DNA of 64,000 bases, taken from assembly GCA_036721445.1 (NCBI GenBank), contig DAIMKZ010000001.1:1175-65174 (forward strand). The letters run 5' to 3'. This document shows, one piece after another, positions 18,531 through 62,116 of this stretch (positions within the stretch are counted from its first letter, which is position 1; each line of letters begins with the position of its first letter). Made by a program: the position numbers and the translations under genes. The notes under the pieces were generated by a model. It was not told where the DNA came from and made no database searches. It worked only from the letters and a program-made list of their open reading frames with translations. The stretch comes from Candidatus Delongbacteria bacterium. GTDB taxonomy: Bacteria; UBA4055.

Positions 18531-18544
18531 ACCGCCTTTTTTTT
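18515..18544. terminator. bidirectional rho-independent terminator between convergent rdgB and carboxyltransferase genes
   Basis: A5-GGCGG-attgaa-CCGCC-T8. Both stop codons (TGA at 18528-18530 on plus, TAA complement at 18543-18545) fall inside the structure. Confidence 0.5.
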
Positions 18545-20201
18545 AGTACCAGCTTCCGCTGTATAAACGCTGATGATCTTCTTCGGTAAGTATCTTCGGT
18601 TTGATGATCCTTGCGGGTATCACGGGATTTGCAGCTTTCCATTCCGCTTCCCTTTTCTTTCTTAAGAACCCGTCTGCCACGTTCGGGAACAGTTCCATGA
18701 GAAGCTCTTCCTTATAATCTACCGCAAGCTTCACCCAGCCGAATTCCTTCAATATAGGATTCGGCTGTTTTTTATATTGGCTCGTGTCATAAGGAATTTC
18801 TTCCGGACTGCCGCATATCTCTTCTCTGAAATCGGGATCCACCGGGAACGGAGTAGTTCCGTACTGGCCCATCACGAGGTTGACGAACTGGTTGGTGAGA
18901 GTCGTATACTGAGGCTTGCCGTTCTGTTCGTCCAGAGCGAGATTGACCGCCTGGGTGCCTACTATCTGGCTGGTCGGTGTAACAAGCGGCGGGCATCCGG
19001 AATCGAGCCTGCACTTGGGCACGAGATGGAGCGCTCTGTCCATCAGATGGTCCAGTTTCAGCTGCTTGAGCTGCGCGACCATGTTCGTGTACATACCTCC
19101 CGGGATCTCCGCGTTCTTGACCTGCTCGTTGGGTTCCGGGAAGTTGAAATATTTTGTTATAGCCTGAGTATGAACAAGCAGTTCATCCACATTGCCGCTT
19201 TCAGCCGCTGCTATCGCCTTGTCGTAAAGAGCGTCAACCTCAGGGTCAAGTTTATAATCTGCTATATCGAATTCTCTCGGTATCAGCTTTGTTGTATCGA
19301 ACTGCTCAAGCTCTTTTCTTATCTTGGCAAGCTCTTTATCTATCATGCTCACCTGCTTCGCGTCAACTCCGGTATCGATCCCGAGCTTATCGCAGAATAT
19401 CCTTACAAGCTCATAAGCCGGAGCCGCCGGACCTCCAGCGAAGTTATAAAGAACGGTATCGACTATGTCTACACCGTTAACGATAGCTATAAAAACCGAT
19501 GCCAGCCCGTAACCGGGCGTATCGTGTGTGTGAAGGTCGATAGGAATGCTCACCGATTTCTTGAGTTCTCTGATCAGTTCGCCTGTCATTTTCGGGTGAA
19601 TTAATCCTGCCATATCTTTGATTGTAATTATGCCTGCGCCTTCTTTTTCGAGTTCTTTTGCTTTTTCAACAAAATACTGGACATTGAAAATATCACTCGG
19701 TAATTTTTTTCTTTTGAAGAAAGCTTTAACCTTATCTTTGAAAGTGAACCTCGGATCGACGGTGAAACATACTGCGCAGTCAGTTATCCCGCCGTATTTT
19801 TTTACGAACTTAATCGTCGAGGTCATATTGTTTATATCATTCAACGCATCGAATATTCTGACTATGCTGAGTCCTGATTTTAGAGTTTCTTTTGTGAAAC
19901 CCTCAATAACTTCGTCGGGATAAGGCGCGTAACCGAAAAGATTTCTTCCTCTGGAAAGACTTGTCAGTTTTGTGCTGTCACCGACCGCCACCTTTATCTT
20001 TTCCAGCCTGTCCCACGGATTCTCACCCAGATATCTCATGATCGAATCAGGTACAGCCCCCCCCCATACTTCGCAGGCGTAAAATCCGGCTTTCGCGTAG
20101 AACGGAAGAACTCTGTCTACCTGCGCCTGGCTCATTCTTGTTGCGAACTGCGACTGCTGTCCGTCTCTCAGTGTCAGATCTCTTATTTTCAGTTGTCTCA
20201 T
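18543..20201 (-). CDS. oxaloacetate decarboxylase alpha / pyruvate carboxylase 5S-type carboxyltransferase subunit (no biotinyl domain)
   Basis: 'LRDGQQS' and 'EVWGGAVPDS' HMGL-like TIM barrel with C-terminal dimerisation region. No 'AMKM' biotin attachment motif. Confidence 0.75.
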   Translation of the reverse strand: MRQLKIRDLTLRDGQQSQFATRMSQAQVDRVLPFYAKAGFYACEVWGGAVPDSIMRYLGENPWDRLEKIKVAVGDSTKLTSLSRGRNLFGYAPYPDEVIEGFTKETLKSGLSIVRIFDALNDINNMTSTIKFVKKYGGITDCAVCFTVDPRFTFKDKVKAFFKRKKLPSDIFNVQYFVEKAKELEKEGAGIITIKDMAGLIHPKMTGELIRELKKSVSIPIDLHTHDTPGYGLASVFIAIVNGVDIVDTVLYNFAGGPAAPAYELVRIFCDKLGIDTGVDAKQVSMIDKELAKIRKELEQFDTTKLIPREFDIADYKLDPEVDALYDKAIAAAESGNVDELLVHTQAITKYFNFPEPNEQVKNAEIPGGMYTNMVAQLKQLKLDHLMDRALHLVPKCRLDSGCPPLVTPTSQIVGTQAVNLALDEQNGKPQYTTLTNQFVNLVMGQYGTTPFPVDPDFREEICGSPEEIPYDTSQYKKQPNPILKEFGWVKLAVDYKEELLMELFPNVADGFLRKKREAEWKAANPVIPARIIKPKILTEEDHQRLYSGSWY

Positions 20202-23960: not shown

Positions 23961-24563
23961 ATGAAAATACTGCTGCTGGACAATTACGACTCTTTTACCT
24001 ACAATCTCAAGGCTCAGCTCGAACGGTGCTCTTATGGTTCCGAAGTGACGGTAAAAAGAAACAGAGATGCTTCGGTATTCGGTCAGGAACTAGACTGTCT
24101 TGTCGTATCTCCCGGACCGATGACGTGGAGAGAAACTGGTGTGCTGAAGGAACTTTTCGTAAAGCGTATCGTGCCTGAAAAGATCCCGTACCTGGGAATA
24201 TGCCTCGGAATGCAGTTTCTGGCTGGATATTACGGGCTCAAAGTTGACAGAATAAGTAATCCTGTTCACGGTTCGGCAGTTGAAATAATACACGACGGCG
24301 GCAGGCTTTTTAAGAACATTCCCGTTACTTTTACAGCCGCAAGATACAACTCACTGGGAATAGTCAGCATTGGGCCGGGAATAAAAGAAATGAACGGACT
24401 TGCTTTCACATCGTACGAGAAAAAGACAGGAAATGTAATGTCTCTTGAGCACAAAGAACTCCCTTTTGCCGGATTCCAGTTCCACACGGAAAGCTTTCTT
24501 ACGAATTCGGGAGACGGACTTATATCAAATTTCATGGAATTATACTGTGAAGATCGGTCTTAA
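23961..24563 (+). CDS. pabA: aminodeoxychorismate/anthranilate synthase glutamine amidotransferase component II
   Basis: GATase1 'GICLGMQ' Cys and 'FQFHTES' His-Glu. Followed by pabB and pabC. Confidence 0.75.
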   Translation: MKILLLDNYDSFTYNLKAQLERCSYGSEVTVKRNRDASVFGQELDCLVVSPGPMTWRETGVLKELFVKRIVPEKIPYLGICLGMQFLAGYYGLKVDRISNPVHGSAVEIIHDGGRLFKNIPVTFTAARYNSLGIVSIGPGIKEMNGLAFTSYEKKTGNVMSLEHKELPFAGFQFHTESFLTNSGDGLISNFMELYCEDRS

Positions 24564-25857
24564 TTCACATACTCAAAAGATCTCATGGGACTTCGAACTG
24601 CTTTTTACTCTCGTTGAAAAATACGACGGAGCCTGTCTCTTCACTTCCACAGATGACAGAAGTTACGGAAAGAATATCTTAGGCATCAACCCCGTAATGA
24701 CTTTCAATGATATATTTTCTCTAGATAGCTTCCTAAAAGAGAACATATCTAACTCTGAATTTCCTCTCGTGATCGGACACATAGCTTATGATCACAAAGA
24801 CCGGCTTGAAGAGAAAGGACTGTTCGGGAATGTGCACGAAGATCTGATGCCTGAGGTAGAATTCAGAGTCTTCGAATATTACATTATTGCCGACAATTCC
24901 GACCATTCTGTACTGAGAACCGTAAAACTGGATCTTCCGTTCAAATATATAGCCGTTGATCCGGATAAAATCTTTAATCATTCCGCTGAAGAATTAAAAG
25001 GCGGCAGCTCTAAATATCACAGTAGTTCATTAACTAGGTTCGAATTCGAAAAAAATGTGGAAAAGATCAGAGATTATATTCTTTCCGGTGATATATATCA
25101 GGCCAATCTGACCAGGAAGATCACGGCGGAGACCACATTTTCTCCGTTTGAACTGGCCCTGAGGCTGAAAGATTCCAATTCGATCGAATTCGGTGTCTTT
25201 GCAAAATCCGGCGAAAACTATGTGATATCTACAAGCCCGGAAAGATTCATGAAGATCGAAAACTCAATACTTACATCCTCACCTATAAAAGGAACCGCTC
25301 CGAGGTCAGATGATGCTGAAACTGACCTTTATAATCTGGAGACGCTTTTAAACTCAAAAAAAGAACTCGCCGAACTGGCAATGATAGTGGATCTTATCAG
25401 GAACGATATGAATAAGATATGCACTGAAGTTAAAGTTGAAAATTTTCCGATAGTTATGAGACTGAAAAATGTCTATCATCTTTATTCTGACATTTCGGGC
25501 AGGCTCCGCACCTCCAGTTTTTCTGAGATCACAAGGGCATTGTTCCCCGGAGGCTCTATCTCAGGCTGTCCTAAAATACGGGCATGTCAGATAATAGAGG
25601 AGCTTGAAAAGACCGGAAGAGGACTTTACACCGGAAATTTCGGTTATATCAGCTTTAACGGAAATATGGATTTCAATATAATGATACGCACGCTGTTCTA
25701 TAATAAAGGCAGCATTTCATTCAATGCCGGCGGCGGAATAACTCTTCTTTCTGATCCGGAAAGCGAGTTCATAGAGACCGTGCACAAGGCAAAAAACATC
25801 TGCAGCGCAATCGATCTGGAGGAAGTATGGGAAGAAAAATCCTTCTTGACGGAGTGA
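24547..25857 (+). CDS. pabB: aminodeoxychorismate synthase component I (chorismate-binding enzyme)
   Basis: 'GDIYQANLTRK', 'PGGSISGCPK' and 'GLYTGNFGYIS' chorismate-binding motifs. The ORF-track start (24445) overlaps pabA by 119 nt. The first in-frame candidate that couples to the pabA stop is the GTG at 24547, so the start is uncertain. Confidence 0.65.
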   Translation: MKIGLNSHTQKISWDFELLFTLVEKYDGACLFTSTDDRSYGKNILGINPVMTFNDIFSLDSFLKENISNSEFPLVIGHIAYDHKDRLEEKGLFGNVHEDLMPEVEFRVFEYYIIADNSDHSVLRTVKLDLPFKYIAVDPDKIFNHSAEELKGGSSKYHSSSLTRFEFEKNVEKIRDYILSGDIYQANLTRKITAETTFSPFELALRLKDSNSIEFGVFAKSGENYVISTSPERFMKIENSILTSSPIKGTAPRSDDAETDLYNLETLLNSKKELAELAMIVDLIRNDMNKICTEVKVENFPIVMRLKNVYHLYSDISGRLRTSSFSEITRALFPGGSISGCPKIRACQIIEELEKTGRGLYTGNFGYISFNGNMDFNIMIRTLFYNKGSISFNAGGGITLLSDPESEFIETVHKAKNICSAIDLEEVWEEKSFLTE

Positions 25858-28659: not shown

Positions 28660-30462
28660 TTAATCGTTCCTTCTGTCCATAAGATACCATTTATCGGATT
28701 CGGACAGCGTCTTTTCTTCAGTTCTCTCTTCTTTTTTTACAGGTTCGCCTTCGCTGATTAACTTTTTAGAAGCGAATCTTCCGTAGGTTGTCTGCGGATA
28801 TCTGTCCCTGATCTCTTCATAAATCCGGCCGGCCTTCCCGTAATTCTTCAGCAGTTTTTCTTCTATCATAGCTGCAGCCTGAAGTATCTGCGGAGAAAGA
28901 GGGCTGTCCTGATATTTTCTTGCAATTACAAGATATTCGTCCGCTGCTTCCTGATACAGCGAGTCAAGAAATTTCCCCGACGAAATGTTAAAAAAATATT
29001 TTGCGGAGTCTTCGATCACCTCAACAGGTTCAAGTCCCTCCCTTATCCTTATATAATTCGCGCCTGCAGTCTCAGGGTATTTTAACAGCACCGAATCAGA
29101 TAAATTAGAGTATCTTGCACTGTCGGCCATTATAAGCGAGATCATTGCCGCCGAAGCTTTATGAGGGTAGTTTCTTTCGGCAGACAGCTCTTCGAACAGT
29201 ACTAAAGCAGTATCCTGAAATCCCATTTCGAACATCGCAGATTCTGCGAGTGAATGTTTATCTTTTATATATGACGATTCAAGGCTTTTCTTCTGTTTAA
29301 TAAGCTCACTAGTTTTAGTTTCATCAACCGACCTTTCTATTTTTGCAGCAAGACTGTCATTTATTTCGGGGTACTCTTCCACTTTTTTCTTAAGCGAGCG
29401 GTAGTTCCTGATAAGATTTTTTCTTGCAACCGCCTTCTGATAAAAATCGTTCCTTCTGTCGTACCATCCGCTGGAGTCATACATATCTTCAGCCGAGTAT
29501 AGATCCTTCTTCAGATTGAAATAGTACTCGCCGAAATAATAAGCCGTTTCCGAAAGATCCGGCCCGTTCTTCTGATCCTTGGGATTTGTCCTTAATATCT
29601 CGTCAAGTTTATTATAAGCTTCTTTTTCCATAGCGTTCTGAACATAGAAGTCGGCTAATTTCACATCTCCCTTCAGCGAATATGCCGCATACTCCGGATC
29701 AGAAGTTATTCTCTCCAGTATGGAGACAGCCTCATCAGTATCTCCCAGATTTTTTAAAGCATCTGCGTAATTGAGTGTATATTGAAATATTTTCTCCCTT
29801 TCATTATGAAGATCTATCAGTTTTTTGTTTATTTCCGCGGATGTTTTATATTCTCCTAATTGGTCCGCGAGCACGGAACTGCTTTGAAGAACAGATATCC
29901 TGTCTATATCATTTTCAGCCTTTTCTGCGGATCTCAGCAGACCCTGCAGGGCTTTGACGCTGTCTCCCTGTGAAAGGCTCATTTCCGCGCCCAGTTTCAA
30001 AATTTTGTATGGCTCAATATTTATATTCTCGCTGCTTATTGTTTCCATGATCCTGCCTGCTTCGTCATAATTTTTCAAAGCTATCTCGACTTCAGCCAGA
30101 TATACTTTTGCCTGGTCCCGCAGATCAGAATCAGGGTAGTTAGTCAGAAGTTCGACGAATTTCTTTTGCGCTTTATAATTATCATCCTGTCTCATATAGC
30201 AGAGACCCATCATGAGAAGCGCGTCGTCCACCCACTTGCTGTCTGGATAGAACTCCAGTATCTTTGAAAGTTCTTTTATACTGTTCTCATACAGTGCTTT
30301 ATCGGTAATATTTTTCTCGATCCTTTTTTTTTCAGCTGAATTATAACTTTCCCTGGCGTTAAAATACATATTGTAATAAGCGCATCCCGAAATTATCAAC
30401 ATCCCGAAAAGCAGAAAATATGTACAAATTTTCTTTTTCAAGAATTCATCCTGTTCTTGCAC
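28660..30462 (-). CDS. tetratricopeptide-repeat protein with N-terminal membrane anchor
   Basis: Single N-terminal TM and multiple TPR-like helical repeats. Last gene of a long minus-strand operon. Confidence 0.55.
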   Translation of the reverse strand: MQEQDEFLKKKICTYFLLFGMLIISGCAYYNMYFNARESYNSAEKKRIEKNITDKALYENSIKELSKILEFYPDSKWVDDALLMMGLCYMRQDDNYKAQKKFVELLTNYPDSDLRDQAKVYLAEVEIALKNYDEAGRIMETISSENINIEPYKILKLGAEMSLSQGDSVKALQGLLRSAEKAENDIDRISVLQSSSVLADQLGEYKTSAEINKKLIDLHNEREKIFQYTLNYADALKNLGDTDEAVSILERITSDPEYAAYSLKGDVKLADFYVQNAMEKEAYNKLDEILRTNPKDQKNGPDLSETAYYFGEYYFNLKKDLYSAEDMYDSSGWYDRRNDFYQKAVARKNLIRNYRSLKKKVEEYPEINDSLAAKIERSVDETKTSELIKQKKSLESSYIKDKHSLAESAMFEMGFQDTALVLFEELSAERNYPHKASAAMISLIMADSARYSNLSDSVLLKYPETAGANYIRIREGLEPVEVIEDSAKYFFNISSGKFLDSLYQEAADEYLVIARKYQDSPLSPQILQAAAMIEEKLLKNYGKAGRIYEEIRDRYPQTTYGRFASKKLISEGEPVKKEERTEEKTLSESDKWYLMDRRND

Positions 30463-40455: not shown

Positions 40456-42130
40456 TACAGTGATAGAAATTTTTCAGTTCCTCGATTTTTCTTTCATACT
40501 TCAGAAAATCTTTTTTTGAAGGTTTGCCAAGTTTCTCTGCTGTCTCCTTCGCGATACTCATATAGTCTTTTCTGAATTTTTCAATATCATTAAGAGATAT
40601 TTTTTCTGTATCGAAATCGTCGTTTATACTGAATTCTCTGAAACTGCTTTTATGCCCGATATACCTCCATTCTGAAGTGACTGGATCAAAACCGTACAAT
40701 TTAAGGAACCTTTCACCATATTCTGCTATGAATTCTATTGCATCAATTATGTACCTTACGTCATTTTCTGTGAATATCCAGTGAAGATTTACTCTTACCC
40801 ATCCGGGTTTTACGCCGGAGATACCTTCACCAACGACAATTTCCCTGTATTTCAAAGACATTTCATTTGAAATATGGAGAAGTCTGTGACCGTAGGGTCC
40901 CGCACATGAACAGCCGGCCCTTGACTGAATCCCGAAAAGGTCGCTTAAAAGCCTTGTTACCAATCTTGGATGAAGGTATTTGTCGAGATGCCTAATATTG
41001 AAAGACACAATCGCAATTCTCTTATGCGGATTTTTATTCCCCATTATCTCAACTTTACCGCTGTTCCTGAAATGACCGAAGAAAAGCTTCTTATTTCTAT
41101 CCTCCAGTTTTTCGATCTCTTTGGTACCTATCCTGCTTTTCAACTCCATTGCAAAAGCTGTTTTTATTGTCTGAAGAATGGGAGGAGTGCCTGCCTTTTC
41201 TCTTGTTTCAATGTCCTTGGAATAATCCTGATCCGTAAAACCTACGAAGTCGACTGTTCCTCCGCCTGCAGTTGTAGGAGGAAGATCCGAACGGTACAGT
41301 TCTTTTCTGAAGATGAGCACTCCGGCGCTTCCCGGACCTCCGAGAAACTTATGCGGCGAGAAAAAAACCGCATCAAAATAACTTGTTTCATTTTTTCTCA
41401 CATTAATATCGGTATAAGGTGCGACTGCTGCAAAATCAAAGAAAATATATGCGCCGTTACTATGAGCTATTTTCGCAAGTTCATATGTATCTGTTATAAT
41501 ACCTGTAATATTTGATCCGGCCGAGAAAGAACAGTATTTCACTTTATCTTTGTACTTATCTTTTTTCAGCTCAAGATCAAGCATTTCCTTGTCAATTTCA
41601 CCTTCATCGTCAAGTTCAATAACCACTATATCCGCGAAAGACTCTCTCCACATAACTTCATTTGTGTGGTGTTCATAAGGACCTATGAAAACGACCGGCC
41701 TGTCGATCTTTATCTTTTCAAGGATGCTGCAGGATTCACAGCCCAGACTCTTTATTGAAGAAAACATCCTGTCTTTTGTGTGGGGAGGTATGTATATACC
41801 TAGTATCTCCTGAAGCCTCTTCAGAGCGCCTGTCGATCCTGATCCGACCGAGATTATCTTGTAATTTTCATCCGTATTTACAAGCTCTTTTATTTTTTTT
41901 TCTGCCCCGTGAAGAAGTGTTGTCAGGTATTCTCCGGAGTAATCGTCAGTAGTATGTGTATTTGCGTAAGATTTTTCAATATTCTGAAGTTTTTCTTCAA
42001 TGAATTTCAGGTTCCTTCCCGAAGCAGTGTAGTCGGCATAGAAAAGGTTCCTTTTCCCGAACGGGGTTTCGAACACTGAGTCGATGCCTATTATCTGATC
42101 CCTTACAAAATCTGCGCTTATCTTTTTCAT
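40427..42130 (-). CDS. aminotransferase class V fold PLP-dependent enzyme (cysteine desulfurase-like), extended 567 aa form
   Basis: 'SPHKFLGGPGSAGVLIF' PLP-lysine motif and 'AGCSCAGPYGH'. Extra N- and C-terminal regions. Confidence 0.6.
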   Translation of the reverse strand: MKKISADFVRDQIIGIDSVFETPFGKRNLFYADYTASGRNLKFIEEKLQNIEKSYANTHTTDDYSGEYLTTLLHGAEKKIKELVNTDENYKIISVGSGSTGALKRLQEILGIYIPPHTKDRMFSSIKSLGCESCSILEKIKIDRPVVFIGPYEHHTNEVMWRESFADIVVIELDDEGEIDKEMLDLELKKDKYKDKVKYCSFSAGSNITGIITDTYELAKIAHSNGAYIFFDFAAVAPYTDINVRKNETSYFDAVFFSPHKFLGGPGSAGVLIFRKELYRSDLPPTTAGGGTVDFVGFTDQDYSKDIETREKAGTPPILQTIKTAFAMELKSRIGTKEIEKLEDRNKKLFFGHFRNSGKVEIMGNKNPHKRIAIVSFNIRHLDKYLHPRLVTRLLSDLFGIQSRAGCSCAGPYGHRLLHISNEMSLKYREIVVGEGISGVKPGWVRVNLHWIFTENDVRYIIDAIEFIAEYGERFLKLYGFDPVTSEWRYIGHKSSFREFSINDDFDTEKISLNDIEKFRKDYMSIAKETAEKLGKPSKKDFLKYERKIEELKNFYHCIEIKRRDNA

Positions 42131-47286: not shown

Positions 47287-48510
47287 ATGAAAACACTAGT
47301 TCAGCTATATTTGAAAGACCTGTTGAGAAATAAAATGCTCGGCCTTATGGTTCTACTTGTTCCGATAATATTTTATCCCCTTATTTACTGGGGAATAAAC
47401 CAGTTCCTTATGGTCAAAACCGGTTTTTCGGACAGCAGGAAACTTACACTTTCCTATACTATTGAACAGGACGAGTTTTTACAGCTGGAAGATTCTCTGA
47501 TGGCAGTAAAGAACCTGATACTTGAAAGAACCGATAATTCAGACACAGGTAAAGATAGGATGCAGCTGATCGTTTCCAATAAAGGAGGACTGCCTCTTTA
47601 CTCCGTAATTATGGACAGCTCAAATTCGAATCACAAAGAGTTTTATCCCAGGATCGAGAATAAGCTTATCGGTTTTTATGAAACGAAAAAAAAAGAGTTA
47701 ATAGAAAATAAAGGATTCGAGAATGAATATTTTGACGTATTTCAAATTGAAACCAGAAATTCGGAAGGAGAGCATGAGATCATAAGAAAAATGCTCTCGC
47801 TCCTTATACCTCTGTTATCCGTTATCTCAATAATATCAGCTGCCGCCGCCGCGTCTGTTGAAATTACATCCGGCCAGTCGGAAGACAGAACGGCAGAGAC
47901 ATCACTGACACTTCCTCTGAAAAGGGAGAGCGTTATTATTTCGAAACTGCTGACCGTTAATATTTACGCATTGCTTGCAGGAACTGTCAATTTTGTTTTC
48001 CTTGTAGTTTTCATAATTACCATCTTCAGTTCCCTGATAACAGGAGTCTCGGAAGATATGACCGGGTTCAGCTGGAGTGAAATTTTCAGTCTGAATATTA
48101 TTATTATCGCACTGGTCTCGCTTCTTCTGACTTCCTTCTTCGTAAGCGTTATTTTTATTACAGCTTCAGGCTTTGCTTCTAAAAGAAAAGAGGGAGGTGT
48201 CATGATATCGCCTTTTACGGCTTTTCTGACATATCTTCCTCTTGTCCTTGTCATACCTGCGGTAGATCCCAATATTTTCATAGCTGCGACGCCTGTTCTG
48301 AACATATCCTTCTGTCTGAAACTGCTGATCGAGAACAATACCGACTTGATTTTCATGGCCGAAACAGCTCTATTTTCGATCCTGTGGCTTGTGATAATAT
48401 ATAAACTTTTCTTCCCGTTCCTCGTTGAAGAGGAAGTGCTTCTGGGTTATTCAGGCTCATCCATAACAAAAAAAATAAAAACAAAGTGGTCAAGATGGAA
48501 GAAACGATAA
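47287..48510 (+). CDS. ABC-2 type exporter permease
   Basis: N-terminal TM, large extracytoplasmic loop, then 5 TMs. Immediately upstream of an ABC ATPase. Confidence 0.55.
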   Translation: MKTLVQLYLKDLLRNKMLGLMVLLVPIIFYPLIYWGINQFLMVKTGFSDSRKLTLSYTIEQDEFLQLEDSLMAVKNLILERTDNSDTGKDRMQLIVSNKGGLPLYSVIMDSSNSNHKEFYPRIENKLIGFYETKKKELIENKGFENEYFDVFQIETRNSEGEHEIIRKMLSLLIPLLSVISIISAAAAASVEITSGQSEDRTAETSLTLPLKRESVIISKLLTVNIYALLAGTVNFVFLVVFIITIFSSLITGVSEDMTGFSWSEIFSLNIIIIALVSLLLTSFFVSVIFITASGFASKRKEGGVMISPFTAFLTYLPLVLVIPAVDPNIFIAATPVLNISFCLKLLIENNTDLIFMAETALFSILWLVIIYKLFFPFLVEEEVLLGYSGSSITKKIKTKWSRWKKR

Positions 48511-58639: not shown

Positions 58640-59239
58640 ATGATAGAAATGCTTACAGGTGAATTAATTCAAAAAGAACCGTCCAGGATAATTATCAGCT
58701 GCGGAGGAGTGGGATTTGGAGTTATCATTTCATCGCACACATATTCTTCTCTTGGAGACATTGGATCTGTCCAGACACTTCACACATTCTTCAAGGTGAG
58801 AGAAGATGATATGTCACTTTATGGATTTTCGGATAAAAAAGAAAAGGAACTTTTTCTGCACCTGAGCTCGGTATCGGGAATAGGGCCGCGAACAGCGATC
58901 CAGGTACTTTCAGAGATCAAATATGACCGGCTTTTTTCTGCGATCACATCCGCCGATGTTACGCTCATATCTCAGGCGCACGGTGTAGGTAAGAAAACCG
59001 CACAGAAAATAGTATTCGAATTAAAAGACAAGATCGGCAGCATCGACGGTATATCCGCTTTGGGAGCTGTAATGGGAGCTTCGTCTGAAAATTCTGAGGC
59101 AGTTACTGCACTTGTCAGACTCGGATACAAAAATGCAGATGCGAACATTGCCGTAGCCCGGATAATTAAAGAAAAAGGTAAAGATGTTTCTACTCAGGAG
59201 ATAGTTAAGACCGCTCTGATGGAAAGAATGAAGAATTAG
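58640..59239 (+). CDS. ruvA: Holliday junction branch-migration protein RuvA
   Basis: 'MIEMLTGEL...' OB domain, HhH 'SVSGIGPRTAIQV' and C-terminal RuvB-binding domain. Confidence 0.9.
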   Translation: MIEMLTGELIQKEPSRIIISCGGVGFGVIISSHTYSSLGDIGSVQTLHTFFKVREDDMSLYGFSDKKEKELFLHLSSVSGIGPRTAIQVLSEIKYDRLFSAITSADVTLISQAHGVGKKTAQKIVFELKDKIGSIDGISALGAVMGASSENSEAVTALVRLGYKNADANIAVARIIKEKGKDVSTQEIVKTALMERMKN

Positions 59240-59306
59240 AACATTTATCATATCATCAAAGTCCTTTTCATTGTTATATTGCATTTAAGGAAAAAGGACG
59301 GACAAA

Positions 59307-59546
59307 TTGAAAAAGCACATTAATATAGATATAAAGGGAATGCACTGCGCCAGCTGCTCATCGCTTGTTACCCTGTCGCTGAAGAACCGAAAGGGTATCG
59401 AGGATGTTTCAGTGAATCTTCTTATGAACAGTGCCGCTTTGATTATAGATGACCGGGAAATCGGTGTTCCTGACATTATTGAAATAATAAACGATCTGGG
59501 TTACAAGGCTTCTTTGGCAGAGGAAGGCGTAAAAAAAAAGCCCTGA
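59307..59546 (+). CDS. copZ: heavy-metal-associated (HMA) domain ORF; probably the N-terminal metal-binding domain of CopA separated from the ATPase body by a frameshift
   Basis: 'GMHCASC' MxCxxC motif. TTG start. Stop TGA at 59544 lies immediately after the A9 run 59531-59539. Confidence 0.6.
59531..59539 (+). other. A9 homopolymer at the junction of the HMA ORF and the CopA core reading frame (candidate slippage / frameshift site)
   Basis: Nine consecutive A's. Deleting one A fuses the two reading frames. Confidence 0.6.
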
Positions 59547-59620
59547 ATGATGAAAGTTTAAAGTTCAGAAAGCTGTTTTTTCTCTCCCTAATATTCGCCT
59601 TCCCTGCCTTTATTCTGGGG

Positions 59621-61468
59621 ATGTTTTTTATGGAACATCCCCTTTTTTATTATCAGAATTACATACTCTGGTTCCTGGCCACTCCCGTCCAGTTCTATGC
59701 CGCGAAAGATATGTATATAAGCGCTTTTAAAGCTTTAAAGAACCGGAGTGCGAATATGGACTCTCTTGTAGTCCTAGGTACAAGTTCAGCATATTTTTAC
59801 AGCGTTTTTCTGGTTCTTTCACACGATCATCATAACTATTTCGAGGCCAGTGCCGTTCTGATCACGGTCGTCATACTCGGAAGATACCTTGAGGCAGTCG
59901 CTAAAAGAAAGACCGGTCAGGCAATAGAAAGTCTGATGAAGCTCTCCCCTTCCAATGCAACGGTGATCCGTGACGGCAATGAAATACTTATAAGCATCGA
60001 TGATATCAAGATCGGAGATATTGTGATCGTAAGACCGGGAGAAAAGATACCTGTTGACGGAACTGTCACCGAAGGAAGTTCAAAAGTTGATGAAAGCATG
60101 ATAACGGGAGAATCGGTCCCGGTTTCAAAAAAAGAAGGTACAAAAGTCATTGGAGCCACAGTTAATCAGTTCGGAGTTTTTAAGTTCCGTGCAGAAAAGA
60201 TCGGATCTGATACTGTTCTTTCCAGAATTATTAAGCTTGTCGAAGATGCACAGAGTAAAAAGGCTCAGATCCAGAGGTACGCAGACCTTATATCCTCGTA
60301 TTTTGTTCCGGCCGTACTTGGAATTGCATTTCTTACATTCGTCATCTGGCTTACGCTGGGGTATGAATTCAATTTCGCGATAATGACGGCCGTCTCTGTC
60401 CTTGTCGTCTCTTGCCCGTGCGCTCTCGGACTTGCTACACCCACTGCCATCATGGTAGGATCCGGGATCGGAGCAAAATACGGTATTCTCTTCAAGGGCG
60501 GAGATTCTCTTGAAACTGCGCACAGGCTGAAGAACATCGTTTTTGATAAAACAGGCACCCTTACGATAGGCCGACCGGTCGTAACGGATATGATCGATGT
60601 TGAAGATAACAAGAACATGATACTCCTTGCAGCCTCTATGGAAAAACAAAGCGAACACAGTCTTGCAAAAGCAATACTTGAAAAAACCAGCGGAGAGATA
60701 CTTTACGCTGCAAAAGATGTTCAGGCGGTATCAGGTCACGGAATTACGGGTGTGATCGAAGGCACTCCGTATTTTCTTGGAAATGAGGCGTTAATGCAGA
60801 AAAACGGAATTGATATAAGCACGCAAGTGGAAACGATAAAAAAGCTCGAAAAAGAAGGAAAGACCGTAGTAATTTTAGCTTCAAAGGACGGAGTTCAAGG
60901 CATCATCGGAATCGCGGATGATGTCAAGGAAACCGCAGCTGAGGCCGTTGCAGATCTGAAAAAGGCGGGGCACAAGATATTCATGATAACAGGTGATAAC
61001 GAAACTGCCGCTCAGAATATAGGAAAAATACTCGGGATCGATCAGGTCTATGCCCGGACTCTGCCGGAAAATAAATCTGAAATAGTCAAAAAGATAAAAG
61101 AAACAGGCCCGACAGCTATGATCGGCGACGGCATTAATGATTCTCCCGCACTTGCCGAAGCAGATATAGGTATCGCGATGGGATCAGGAACAGATGTAGC
61201 GATTGAGACCGGTAATATAGTTCTTATGCGTAACGACCTTGAAGATATTTCAAAAGCTATCAGACTCAGCAGACTCACGATGAACAGGATCAGACTCAAC
61301 ATGTTCTGGGCCCTGTTTTATAATGTATTGGGTATACCGGTCGCCGCGGGAGTATTCTATGCCTGGACAGGCTGGCTCTTAAGCCCGATGATAGCCGGAA
61401 CAGCAATGGCGCTAAGTTCAGTCAGCGTCGTTACCAGTTCGCTTTTGCTCAGGTATAAAAAACTGTGA
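59621..61468 (+). CDS. copA: copper-translocating P1B-type ATPase core (CopA); frame is open upstream to 59522 without a start codon
   Basis: '[10 protein letters not shown]', 'DKTGTLT', '[10 protein letters not shown]', actuator motif 'TGES' and 8 TMs. The frame-2 translation upstream of the first ATG reads '[33 protein letters not shown]', a typical CopA linker plus the first TM helix (TM-A). Confidence 0.8.
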
Positions 61469-61474
61469 TCTGAT

Positions 61475-61783
61475 CTACTTTCTCATCCTGCAGCCTGTAG
61501 AACCTCCCCCTCCGCCGAAAGTCGCGGCAACACCCAGCAGAAATCCAAAGTTATACCAGGTTCCGTTGTTGTGAACTTCATATATTCCGATATTATCATT
61601 GAACAGTGAAATTACAAATGTGATCGGAGAGATCGTCCCGTGCCAAATCCCGTACCAGAAACCGGCAGGTTCTTTCGTGAATTCAGTAAAAGTGATCGCA
61701 TTATTCGGTCCAGCCGTGCAGCCTGCGATTACAAGAAGTGCAATTACGCATGAAACAACTAATACTTTTTTTTTATTTTTTAT
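61475..61783 (-). CDS. putative small lipoprotein with Gly5 C-terminal tail; no canonical start codon
   Basis: Minus-strand frame is open for about 102 codons: '(I)KNKKKVLVVSCVIALLVIAGC|TAGPNN...WYNFGFLLGVAATFGGGGGSTGCRMRK*'. Lipobox 'IAGC'. AAGAGGA sits about 5 nt upstream of an ATA codon at 61783-61781. Missed by the ORF track because no ATG/GTG/TTG is in frame. Confidence 0.35.
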   Translation of the reverse strand: MKNKKKVLVVSCVIALLVIAGCTAGPNNAITFTEFTKEPAGFWYGIWHGTISPITFVISLFNDNIGIYEVHNNGTWYNFGFLLGVAATFGGGGGSTGCRMRK

Positions 61784-61792
61784 CCTCTTTTT

Positions 61793-62116
61793 TTATCTCT
61801 TGTTCTTTTTCGGTTTAGGCAGCGGAAGTTCTTTCTCTGTAACTTTGACAAGCTCGGAAAGCCAGTCGGGGTCATCGAGATTGTCTATTAGAAAATAATT
61901 CTTTGCGCCTGTGTAAGGCGGAGCTTCTTCGGGTTCGCCTATGTATTTTCTGCCTGCTTCAGTAGGCTTGATAAAAAGCTGGTTGTCAGCCAGAATTGCA
62001 GTCATTTTCCCGTTGAGAAATATTCCGTACTCACCGAACATTTTCTTTGCTGTCACTTCGCCTGCGCCTTCAAGCTGCTCGAGTATATAATCCGCGAAAT
62101 CTTTGTCTGTAGCCAT
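61793..62116 (-). CDS. TfoX N-terminal domain-containing protein
   Basis: 'KKMFGEYGIFLNGKMTAILADNQLFIK' resembles the TfoX_N family. Confidence 0.55.
   Translation of the reverse strand: MATDKDFADYILEQLEGAGEVTAKKMFGEYGIFLNGKMTAILADNQLFIKPTEAGRKYIGEPEEAPPYTGAKNYFLIDNLDDPDWLSELVKVTEKELPLPKPKKNKR

Follow-up and report, generated by a model that had tools for sequence, protein, structure and literature searches.

The copper-pump gene copA of a Candidatus Delongbacteria bacterium is split between two reading frames at a run of nine A's. We consider programmed recoding at this run the most probable explanation (probability roughly 0.8), by RNA-polymerase slippage and/or by -1 ribosomal frameshifting on the heptamer A_AAA_AAG. 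The locus lies in a 64,000-nucleotide (nt) stretch of DNA, called the window below (assembly GCA_036721445.1, contig DAIMKZ010000001.1, positions 1,175-65,174), and all coordinates are positions in this window. In our interpretation, a single copper-homeostasis locus would be decoded in two ways at an A9 or A10 run located in the linker between the HMA domain and the first transmembrane (TM) helix. Standard decoding would stop two codons past the run and release a free HMA (CopZ-like) protein of 79 amino acids (aa), and a fraction of decoding events would enter the -1 frame and produce the full 720-aa HMA-CopA pump. The arrangement appears well supported by comparison among Delongbacteria, and the whole case for recoding is comparative, built on the anatomy, conservation and selection described below.

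Anatomy of the split copA locus

The two coding sequences, the junction and the pump motifs were located as follows.

59295-59302, plus strand: Shine-Dalgarno (SD)-like sequence AGGACGGA, read from the sequence, 4-8 nt 5' of the TTG start of the HMA open reading frame (ORF)
59307-59546, plus strand: HMA ORF in the 0 frame, 79 aa, TTG start, ending ...EEGVKKKP before the stop; putative CopZ-like product of standard decoding
59337-59357, plus strand: GMHCASC, by which the HMA domain binds metal; identical in every aligned lineage
59531-59539, plus strand: A9 run, candidate recoding (slip) site; A9 or A10, uninterrupted, in 15/15 lineages
59534-59540, plus strand: 0-frame A_AAA_AAG heptamer of the dnaX type, a candidate motif for -1 ribosomal frameshifting
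59544-59546, plus strand: 0-frame stop TGA, two codons past the last lysine (Lys) codon
59540-61468, plus strand: pump coding sequence in the -1 frame, with the linker, the 8-TM P1B-1 ATPase body and the stop at 61466-61468
59573-59632, plus strand: first TM helix, residues 90-109 of the fusion, collinear with contiguous archaeal homologues
59621-59623, plus strand: ATG, the first canonical start in the pump frame, at the C-terminal end of the first TM helix
60410-60430, plus strand: SCPCALG with the CPC ion-translocation motif, read in the -1 frame
60545-60565, plus strand: DKTGTLT phosphorylation motif, read in the -1 frame
61124-61153, plus strand: hinge motif (GDGxND), 10 aa, read in the -1 frame
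61298-61438, plus strand: N-x6-YN-x4-P and M-x2-SS-x5-S signatures, read in the -1 frame

A first-pass annotation of this DNA had already described most of this layout, and direct reading agreed with it on the A9 run, the 79-aa HMA ORF with its GMHCASC motif and TGA stop, the ATPase body in the +2 (equal to -1) frame running to 61468, and the hydrophobic first TM helix that contains the ATG at 59621. The distance between run and stop had been given as three bases; we found four (GCCC). The 0-frame codons at the junction are GAG GAA GGC GTA AAA AAA AAG CCC TGA. The pump frame (positions congruent to 59306) is -1 relative to the HMA frame and, as previously described, is open 5'-ward through the A-run, to 59483.

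The 79-aa ORF scored 46.8 bits against the Pfam HMA model (cut-off 24.8), and in size and motif it corresponds to a stand-alone HMA protein (about 70 aa with MxCxxC). It remained below the cut-offs of the curated CopZ families NF033794 (42.9 bits, cut-off 95) and NF033795 (36.7 bits, cut-off 91). By sequence, the protein appears to resemble the N-terminal metal-binding domain of a pump more closely than these families. Its start codon is TTG in the window and ATG at the equivalent position in L006, L008 and L009 (L and P numbers denote our loci and proteins).

The TGE, CPC, DKTGT and GDGxND motifs and both selectivity signatures were all present in the -1 frame; we take N-x6-YN-x4-P and M-x2-SS-x5-[NS] to be the P1B-1 Cu+ selectivity signatures of the P1B classification. 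The first TM helix matched the contiguous archaeal homologues residue by residue. Because ATG 59621 lies inside this helix, the helix can be translated in the pump frame only from upstream of that codon, and judged by the alignment ATG 59621 is not the natural N-terminus of the pump. Gene callers nevertheless place the pump start there (612-615-aa annotations). An exact database look-up of the 615-aa pump ORF gave no match, the callers having taken a later start (612 aa). No ATG, GTG or TTG in the pump frame precedes the methionine of the GMFFM sequence in the window, L004, L006, L009 or L091.

A contiguous ORF with HMA domain, TM region and catalytic core, as expected of CopA, was not found in the DNA and was obtained only after one A was added. 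The conceptual fusion, which joins 59307-59539 to the pump, can be made by A10 (one A added), by A7 (two A's removed) or by a -1 ribosomal shift. The A10 product is a 720-aa CopA with HMA, E1-E2 ATPase and HAD domains. It scored 636.7 bits against TIGR01511 (cut-off 397) and 642.4 bits against TIGR01525 (cut-off 346), and its residues 7-716 aligned with Archaeoglobus fulgidus CopA (PDB 3J09, E = 2.4e-187). The first-pass annotation had instead expected CopA after removal of one A and had taken A8 reads as the sign of a sequencing error. With A8 the sequence reads ...VKKSPE followed by two stops, so that the proposed sign was mis-specified; the in-frame allele would be A10 or A7. The earlier account also left A_AAA_AAG and ribosomal frameshifting out of consideration. 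Both the A8 and the A11 outcomes terminate within 2-4 codons, and therefore every transcript that does not encode the fusion still encodes the CopZ-like protein.

The split in independent assemblies

The exact 79-aa protein was found on three further public contigs, one from NCBI assembly GCA_035593625.1, one assembled with MEGAHIT and one with SPAdes. All three carry A9 as the window does, giving four independent assemblies of one strain made with different assemblers. Over 6.1 kb, the sole insertion or deletion (indel) between the window and GCA_035593625.1 was an intergenic T9/T10 difference at 61766 (T10 in GCA_035593625.1). Differences in homopolymer length were therefore detectable, and there was none in copA. 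The T9 run itself (61766-61774) sits just 3' of the stop of a minus-strand TfoX_N gene (61793-62116). Three other 9-nt A/T homopolymers of the window, at 47686-47694, 30324-30332 and 41893-41901, sit in intact genes, those of an ABC-2 permease, a TPR protein and a class-V aminotransferase. These results show that the split in copA is real and no sequencing artefact.

The contig L002 (ERZ27257410, assembled with MEGAHIT) was considered as a strain with 1.3% divergence and was rejected as such: its junction is identical and all 25 mismatches fall in the last 106 nt. Over 1.77 kb it matches the window at 100% identity, and the mismatches lie at 59812-59917, at the contig end. Either strains have recombined within copA at this tract, or the end of the contig is chimeric.

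Conservation across Delongbacteria and relatives

We retrieved DNA for 15 distinct Delongbacteria lineages including the window, seven of the loci being GTDB species representatives. The added-A fusion and the Lys-codon comparison cover 13 of them. The first-pass annotation had proposed a comparison with related genomes, and this comparison came out in its favour: the A-run and the out-of-frame layout were kept in 15/15 lineages. The pump was in the -1 frame in every one of them, as read from the reading frames at each junction and, for six loci, also by tblastn, and adding one A gave an uninterrupted CopA of 718-724 aa in 13/13 lineages computed. The gene order ruvC-ruvA-HMA-pump was retained, with an HMA ORF of 77-92 aa as called directly 5' of the pump. 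CopA is about 68-100% identical across the lineages, and RuvA only about 70% across the clade.

The heptamer A_AAA_AAG was present in 14/15 lineages, and L087 has A_AAA_AAA followed by C. A 0-frame stop (TGA, TAA or TAG) stood two codons past the last Lys codon in 15/15 lineages. It is formed through five nucleotide contexts, CTG-A, TTG-A, TTA-A, TTA-G and ATA-G, which give TGA, TGA, TAA, TAG and TAG in that order. Only 30% of the leucine (Leu) codons in these genes would make an off-frame stop of this kind. Right after the stop, a small 0-frame ORF, ATG ATG AAA GTT TAA, occupies 59547-59561 in the window; most lineages share the nucleotides of its ATG AAA GTT TAA core, which may just follow from the pump-frame codons for D-E-S-L-K.

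A protein search with the fusion returned about 26 closest clusters at 68-100% identity and 549-648 aa, all without an HMA domain and all Candidatus Delongbacteria wherever named. No in-frame allele was found in the four assemblies, the 15 lineages or these clusters. One protein, P0023 (L090, JGI 3300027796, 648 aa), was considered as an in-frame counter-example and rejected, for it carries an unrelated N-terminus of about 60 residues. This foreign segment joins the pump at PVQFY, and the contig starts 21 nt upstream; P0023 is probably a chimeric assembly or a rearranged copy.

Full-length homologues containing the HMA domain appeared only at 58% identity or below, in DPANN archaea (Woesearchaeota, Nanoarchaeota). 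The nearest contiguous homologues (P0026-P0120; L011-L083) are nearly all from DPANN archaea, at 53-58% identity. The DPANN homologues and the Delongbacteria pump have the GMFFM and FAxPxFILG helix sequence in common, which suggests inter-domain transfer of the pump lineage. Among 73 DPANN homologues, 72 are contiguous; the A-runs in their linkers are mostly 5-8 long and reach at least 9 in three. These three archaeal copA genes (L051, L047 and one other) have an in-frame A9-A10 at the same linker position. Slippage there would give HMA-only truncations, a polarity like that of E. coli copA, and these in-frame runs hint at a possible origin of the Delongbacteria arrangement.

Selection on both frames and on the run

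We compared the HMA ORF, the linker with the first TM helix, and the pump among lineages. Between the main lineages the proportion of synonymous differences (pS) was about 0.7-0.9, that is, saturated, and the proportion of nonsynonymous differences (pN) was 0.03-0.38 in the three segments. The dN/dS ratio (nonsynonymous to synonymous substitution rate) was about 0.1-0.2 in the HMA ORF (0 frame), 0.05-0.3 in the 27 codons from the run to ATG 59621 (-1 frame) and about 0.06-0.10 in the pump (-1 frame). The results indicate that all three segments are under purifying selection. Low dN/dS at saturated synonymous sites therefore excludes a decaying pseudogene, and the constraint between the run and ATG 59621 indicates that the first-TM segment is translated in the pump frame. 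Much as in L002, divergence from the window is uneven along L010: pS was 0.05-0.15 in the HMA and linker segments and 0.48 in the pump.

The run itself was then compared with the codon usage of these genes. The two Lys columns at the junction were AAA in 13/13 lineages, whereas 13 of the 14 other invariant Lys columns mix AAA and AAG, and 72% of the Lys codons in these genes are AAA. The codon before the run varies among valine, glycine and glutamate, yet it always ends in A (GTA, GGA and GAA, with 21%, 41% and 72% usage). The sole lineage in which the last Lys codon has changed from AAG to ACG has GAA upstream, so that A9 is kept. Among close relatives, run length changed via flanking substitutions only (GGA giving A9, GAA giving A10) and never by indels. 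These findings show nucleotide-level constraint on the run over and above what the encoded amino acids require. Conservation of synonymous sites peaked at codons 67-91 (0.72-0.82 against a mean of 0.46), with a second peak at codons 107-119, and nucleotide identity to L010, L006 and L007 was highest or near-highest in 150-nt segments at or just after the junction.

Predicted RNA features around the run

Four RNA features were predicted or read near the run.

59516-59529, plus strand: 5' arm of a long-range helix, GGCAGAGGAAGGCG, ending 1 nt before the A-run
59520-59527, plus strand: SD-like sequence GAGGAAGG inside the 5' helix arm, read from the sequence
59596-59608, plus strand: 3' arm of the long-range helix, CGCCUUCCCUGCC; predicted duplex with the 5' arm, -24.1 kcal/mol
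59617-59648, plus strand: intrinsic-terminator-like element within the pump frame: hairpin of 11 bp (59617-59642), then U6 (59643-59648); contains ATG 59621

The 13-bp helix, predicted by both a single-sequence fold and an alignment fold, would bracket the A-run and the 0-frame stop. Across the 15 lineages its arms paired in 86% of cells, against 45-55% when the partner was slid. Eight cells were compensatory, with both sides changed, and 0/500 shuffles reached eight; one pair occurs as A-U, G-C, C-G and U-G. The 3' arm segment was the best duplex partner within 400 nt in 13/15 lineages, at -18 to -26 kcal/mol. In L008 both arms are altered and GCCGGUGAGGA pairs with UCCUUACCGGC, the changes including non-synonymous ones. 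Related sequences can beat shuffles in such tests even without structure, and we regard the evidence that the predicted helix is real as good but short of conclusive.

The GAGG of the SD-like sequence ends 10 nt before the heptamer. Most lineages retain this sequence; L091 has it only in part, and L009 has lost it. Its conservation has another possible cause, because the same bases form the 5' helix arm.

The terminator-like hairpin had a predicted energy of -15.7 to -16.9 kcal/mol and ranked second among 145 hairpin-plus-T-run candidates on both strands of the window, ahead of gene-end terminators. Under the same criteria, an equivalent hairpin with a U-tail occurred 75-76 nt past the run in 9/13 lineages. 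Covariation in this hairpin was not above that of shuffles, and no antiterminator pairing of the 3' helix arm with it was predicted, the hairpin forming in every context. A scan of 59100-59800 against Rfam gave no match.

Mechanism and its weighing

The pump frame could be entered in two ways. RNA polymerase may add one non-templated A (or drop two) at the run, or the ribosome may shift -1 on A_AAA_AAG; both routes would yield the same protein and may operate together. Sequence alone cannot separate polymerase slippage from ribosomal frameshifting. We weight the two about equally, with a slight preference for polymerase slippage because the run is never shorter than nine A's while the heptamer needs only six A's and a G. 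The precedents of T. thermophilus dnaX, Shigella mxiE and the E. coli reporters, given below, also favour polymerase slippage. The near-universal A_AAA_AAG, the dnaX-like spacing of the putative SD-like stimulator and the predicted conserved RNA structure lend support to ribosomal frameshifting. From the comparative evidence we infer the occurrence and efficiency of slippage and a chaperone role for the short product. A tunable chaperone-to-pump ratio, as the first-pass annotation envisaged, could follow. Its proposal of programmed slippage with a polarity reversed relative to E. coli copA is favoured by the comparative data, although the direction of slip that it gave does not hold.

We also put forward, tentatively and as a model we rather doubt, that the A-run, the 13-bp helix and the terminator act as a three-part cassette in which reading frame gates transcript completion. 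On an unslipped message the lead ribosome would stop at the UGA (59544-59546) and leave bare RNA on which the terminator could form, giving a short copZ-only mRNA. On a slipped or frameshifted message the ribosome would trail the polymerase through the hairpin, termination would be suppressed, and the 1.9-kb pump would be transcribed. If this holds, the cassette would amount to an attenuator whose input is a slippage event and not a metabolite, and the chaperone-to-pump ratio would be set at two levels.

Several observations count against recoding or against the part that the RNA elements would play in it. The sub-clade of L009 and L091 lacks both the helix and the terminator-like hairpin. The 3' arm lies 57 nt downstream, which fits no standard stimulator geometry for either mechanism. 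The alignment fold gave no conserved stimulatory hairpin 5-9 nt past the heptamer; in the window, a weak AU-rich stem begins 3 nt past it. Runs of A9 or T9 are not depleted in the window (n = 5, three of them inside intact genes), and this organism may slip less on nine A's than E. coli does. Finally, in seven lineages a pump-frame TTG overlaps the 0-frame stop (TTGA). This TTG could start an HMA-less pump by termination-reinitiation, and recoding may not be the sole route to the pump there.

Alternative explanations

The alternative that survives best, though we hold it to be unlikely, is that of two ordinary adjacent genes. Here a copZ-like gene would be followed by an HMA-less copA that starts independently, by termination-reinitiation or at a non-AUG codon, and the run would be no more than a Lys-rich tail or linker in an AT-rich genome. 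CopA pumps truncated of the N-terminal metal-binding domain are active. A CopA construct of this kind has a solved structure (3J08), the overlapping TTG is available in L007, L085, L092, L093, L087, L008 and L084, gene callers used TTG for P0014, and Lys-rich linkers with A-runs are common in contiguous homologues. In the other lineages, however, the codon at the Leu position is unusable as a start, being CTG in the window, L004, L010 and L006, TTA in L009 and L091, and ATA in L094 and L096, and the first TM helix is conserved there all the same. The only SD-like sequence lies 15-16 nt 5' of the Leu codon, which is too far. Two separate genes would also leave unexplained why the run is never interrupted nor shorter than nine A's although the flanking amino acids vary, and why in every lineage the pump occupies the -1 frame and this frame is open through the entire run.

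Phase variation at the DNA level is very improbable. Through slipped-strand mispairing at replication, subpopulations would switch the pump ON (A10 or A7) or OFF (A9). Poly-A tracts are well known as contingency loci (PMC3711429), and the intergenic T9/T10 at 61766 shows that homopolymer indels occur in the strain. Against this, no ON allele was seen in the assemblies, lineages and clusters searched, with the limit that consensus assemblies could hide minority alleles. Run length has shifted by flanking substitutions that keep the frame (GTA, GGA and GAA before the run, AAG to ACG at its end), and a copper pump of free-living, mostly sediment or bioreactor bacteria would be an untypical phase-variable surface function.

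An inactivating frameshift, one of the options raised by the first-pass annotation, is barely tenable. It would make copA a pseudogene remnant in which only the HMA fragment, or nothing, is functional, and the literal reading does leave the pump without a start codon that covers the first TM helix. About 640 codons without a further stop or indel in 13/13 lineages, with all catalytic and Cu+ motifs, speak against it, as do purifying selection on both halves and the same layout in 15 lineages with saturated synonymous sites. A homopolymer error, also raised there, would mean an ordinary contiguous copA that was misread or misassembled, and a single-base frame difference at a 9-nt homopolymer fits it. 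It can be practically dismissed, since the same A9 recurs in the MEGAHIT, SPAdes and NCBI/JGI assemblies, the same layout recurs in 15 lineages, the A10 lineages are out of frame too and in the same direction, and the other 9-nt runs of the window leave their genes intact.

Other observations in the window

The region of about 325 nt between copA and the TfoX_N gene (61469-61792) holds no minus-strand ORF of at least 40 aa; at the equivalent position L091 has a 100-aa gene. Two ORFs at 23961-25857, one for a glutamine amidotransferase and one for a chorismate-binding enzyme, share 119 nt. The overlap, 24445-24563, was considered as a second frameshift and rejected, since these are two ordinary genes; it looks like an over-extension of the second ORF 5'-ward to a TTG. 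The window has a single C9 run, 20057-20065, close to the 5' end of the minus-strand ORF 18543-20201. A tRNA scan of the 64-kb window found no tRNA.

Relation to known systems

The closest parallel is E. coli copA. According to the accounts in PMC5009743, PMC9548414 and PMC7558416, which describe Meydan et al. 2017 and Drees et al. 2017, a -1 frameshift just past the first metal-binding domain yields the CopA(Z) chaperone there, and standard decoding yields the pump. As far as these accounts describe it, both loci would give a free HMA protein of about 70-80 aa and a full Cu+ pump, and in both the site lies directly past the first metal-binding domain with a shift to -1. A short transcript form has been reported for E. 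coli copA in the same accounts, and the Delongbacteria locus has a terminator-like hairpin past the site. The differences from what they report are that standard decoding in Delongbacteria would give the small protein, the pump needing the shift, and that the slip sequence is A9/A10 (A_AAA_AAG) rather than C_CCA_AAG with a pseudoknot. The Delongbacteria gene further has a single HMA domain, belongs to an unrelated clade and has RNA-polymerase slippage as a serious candidate. It is thus an analogue of E. coli copA/CopA(Z) recoding and no member of it. Our literature search found recoding in a copper ATPase for E. coli copA only. The words copper, ATPase and metal are absent from the main text of the survey PMC3711429, its supplementary tables lying outside the search.

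Poly-A runs are known slip sites. In E. coli reporters, A7, A9 and A11 runs gave 10%, 40% and 63% frame change (Antonov et al. 2013, PMC3711429), and the Mg-chelatase-like and insertion-sequence (IS) element -1 recoding clusters of that survey (A7-A11) likewise have a conserved poly-A at a -1 frame transition. In dnaX, transcriptional slippage occurs at A9 in Thermus thermophilus (PMC1088944), and Chlorobi have a two-ORF form with A10 in which slippage is needed for the long product (PMC3711429). The Delongbacteria copA resembles dnaX in having A_AAA_AAG, the motif of E. coli -1 frameshifting, within A9-A10; its SD-like GAGG, a putative stimulator, is placed about 10 nt upstream, like that of E. 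coli dnaX. For dnaX, some taxa make the long form by default and others the short one, which parallels E. coli copA and the Delongbacteria locus. Unlike dnaX, the present gene is of another family and has no hairpin 5-9 nt downstream, the predicted long-range helix enclosing the site instead. In Shigella flexneri mxiE, two overlapping ORFs are fused by transcriptional slippage at a T-run (PMC1088944). There, as proposed here, one non-templated nucleotide turns two annotated ORFs into a functional long protein; the short mxiE product is without a known independent role, whereas the short product in Delongbacteria is a complete and conserved metal-binding domain.

Separate copZ-copA operons occur, for example, in Enterococcus hirae and Bacillus subtilis. 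They too supply the cell with a free HMA chaperone plus a pump, encoded side by side, with a copA that keeps its own start and its N-terminal HMA domain or domains. The Delongbacteria pump frame differs in that it has, in several lineages, no start that covers the first TM helix and becomes continuous with the HMA ORF after a 1-nt shift.

If recoding is confirmed, this locus would give a second example, of independent evolutionary origin, of one copA encoding two proteins, with the opposite polarity and another slip signal than in E. coli. It would argue that making a free metal-binding domain alongside the pump is in itself favoured by selection. It would also parallel dnaX, in which the same outcome is reached by ribosomal or by polymerase slippage and with the long or the short product as default. 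The predicted helix and the terminator-like hairpin would form with the run a compact cassette of about 180 nt for the interplay of slippage, translation and termination. Dozens of public Delongbacteria annotations, in which a 612-648-aa 'copper-translocating ATPase' stands next to a small HMA protein, would then be the mis-annotated halves of one recoded gene.

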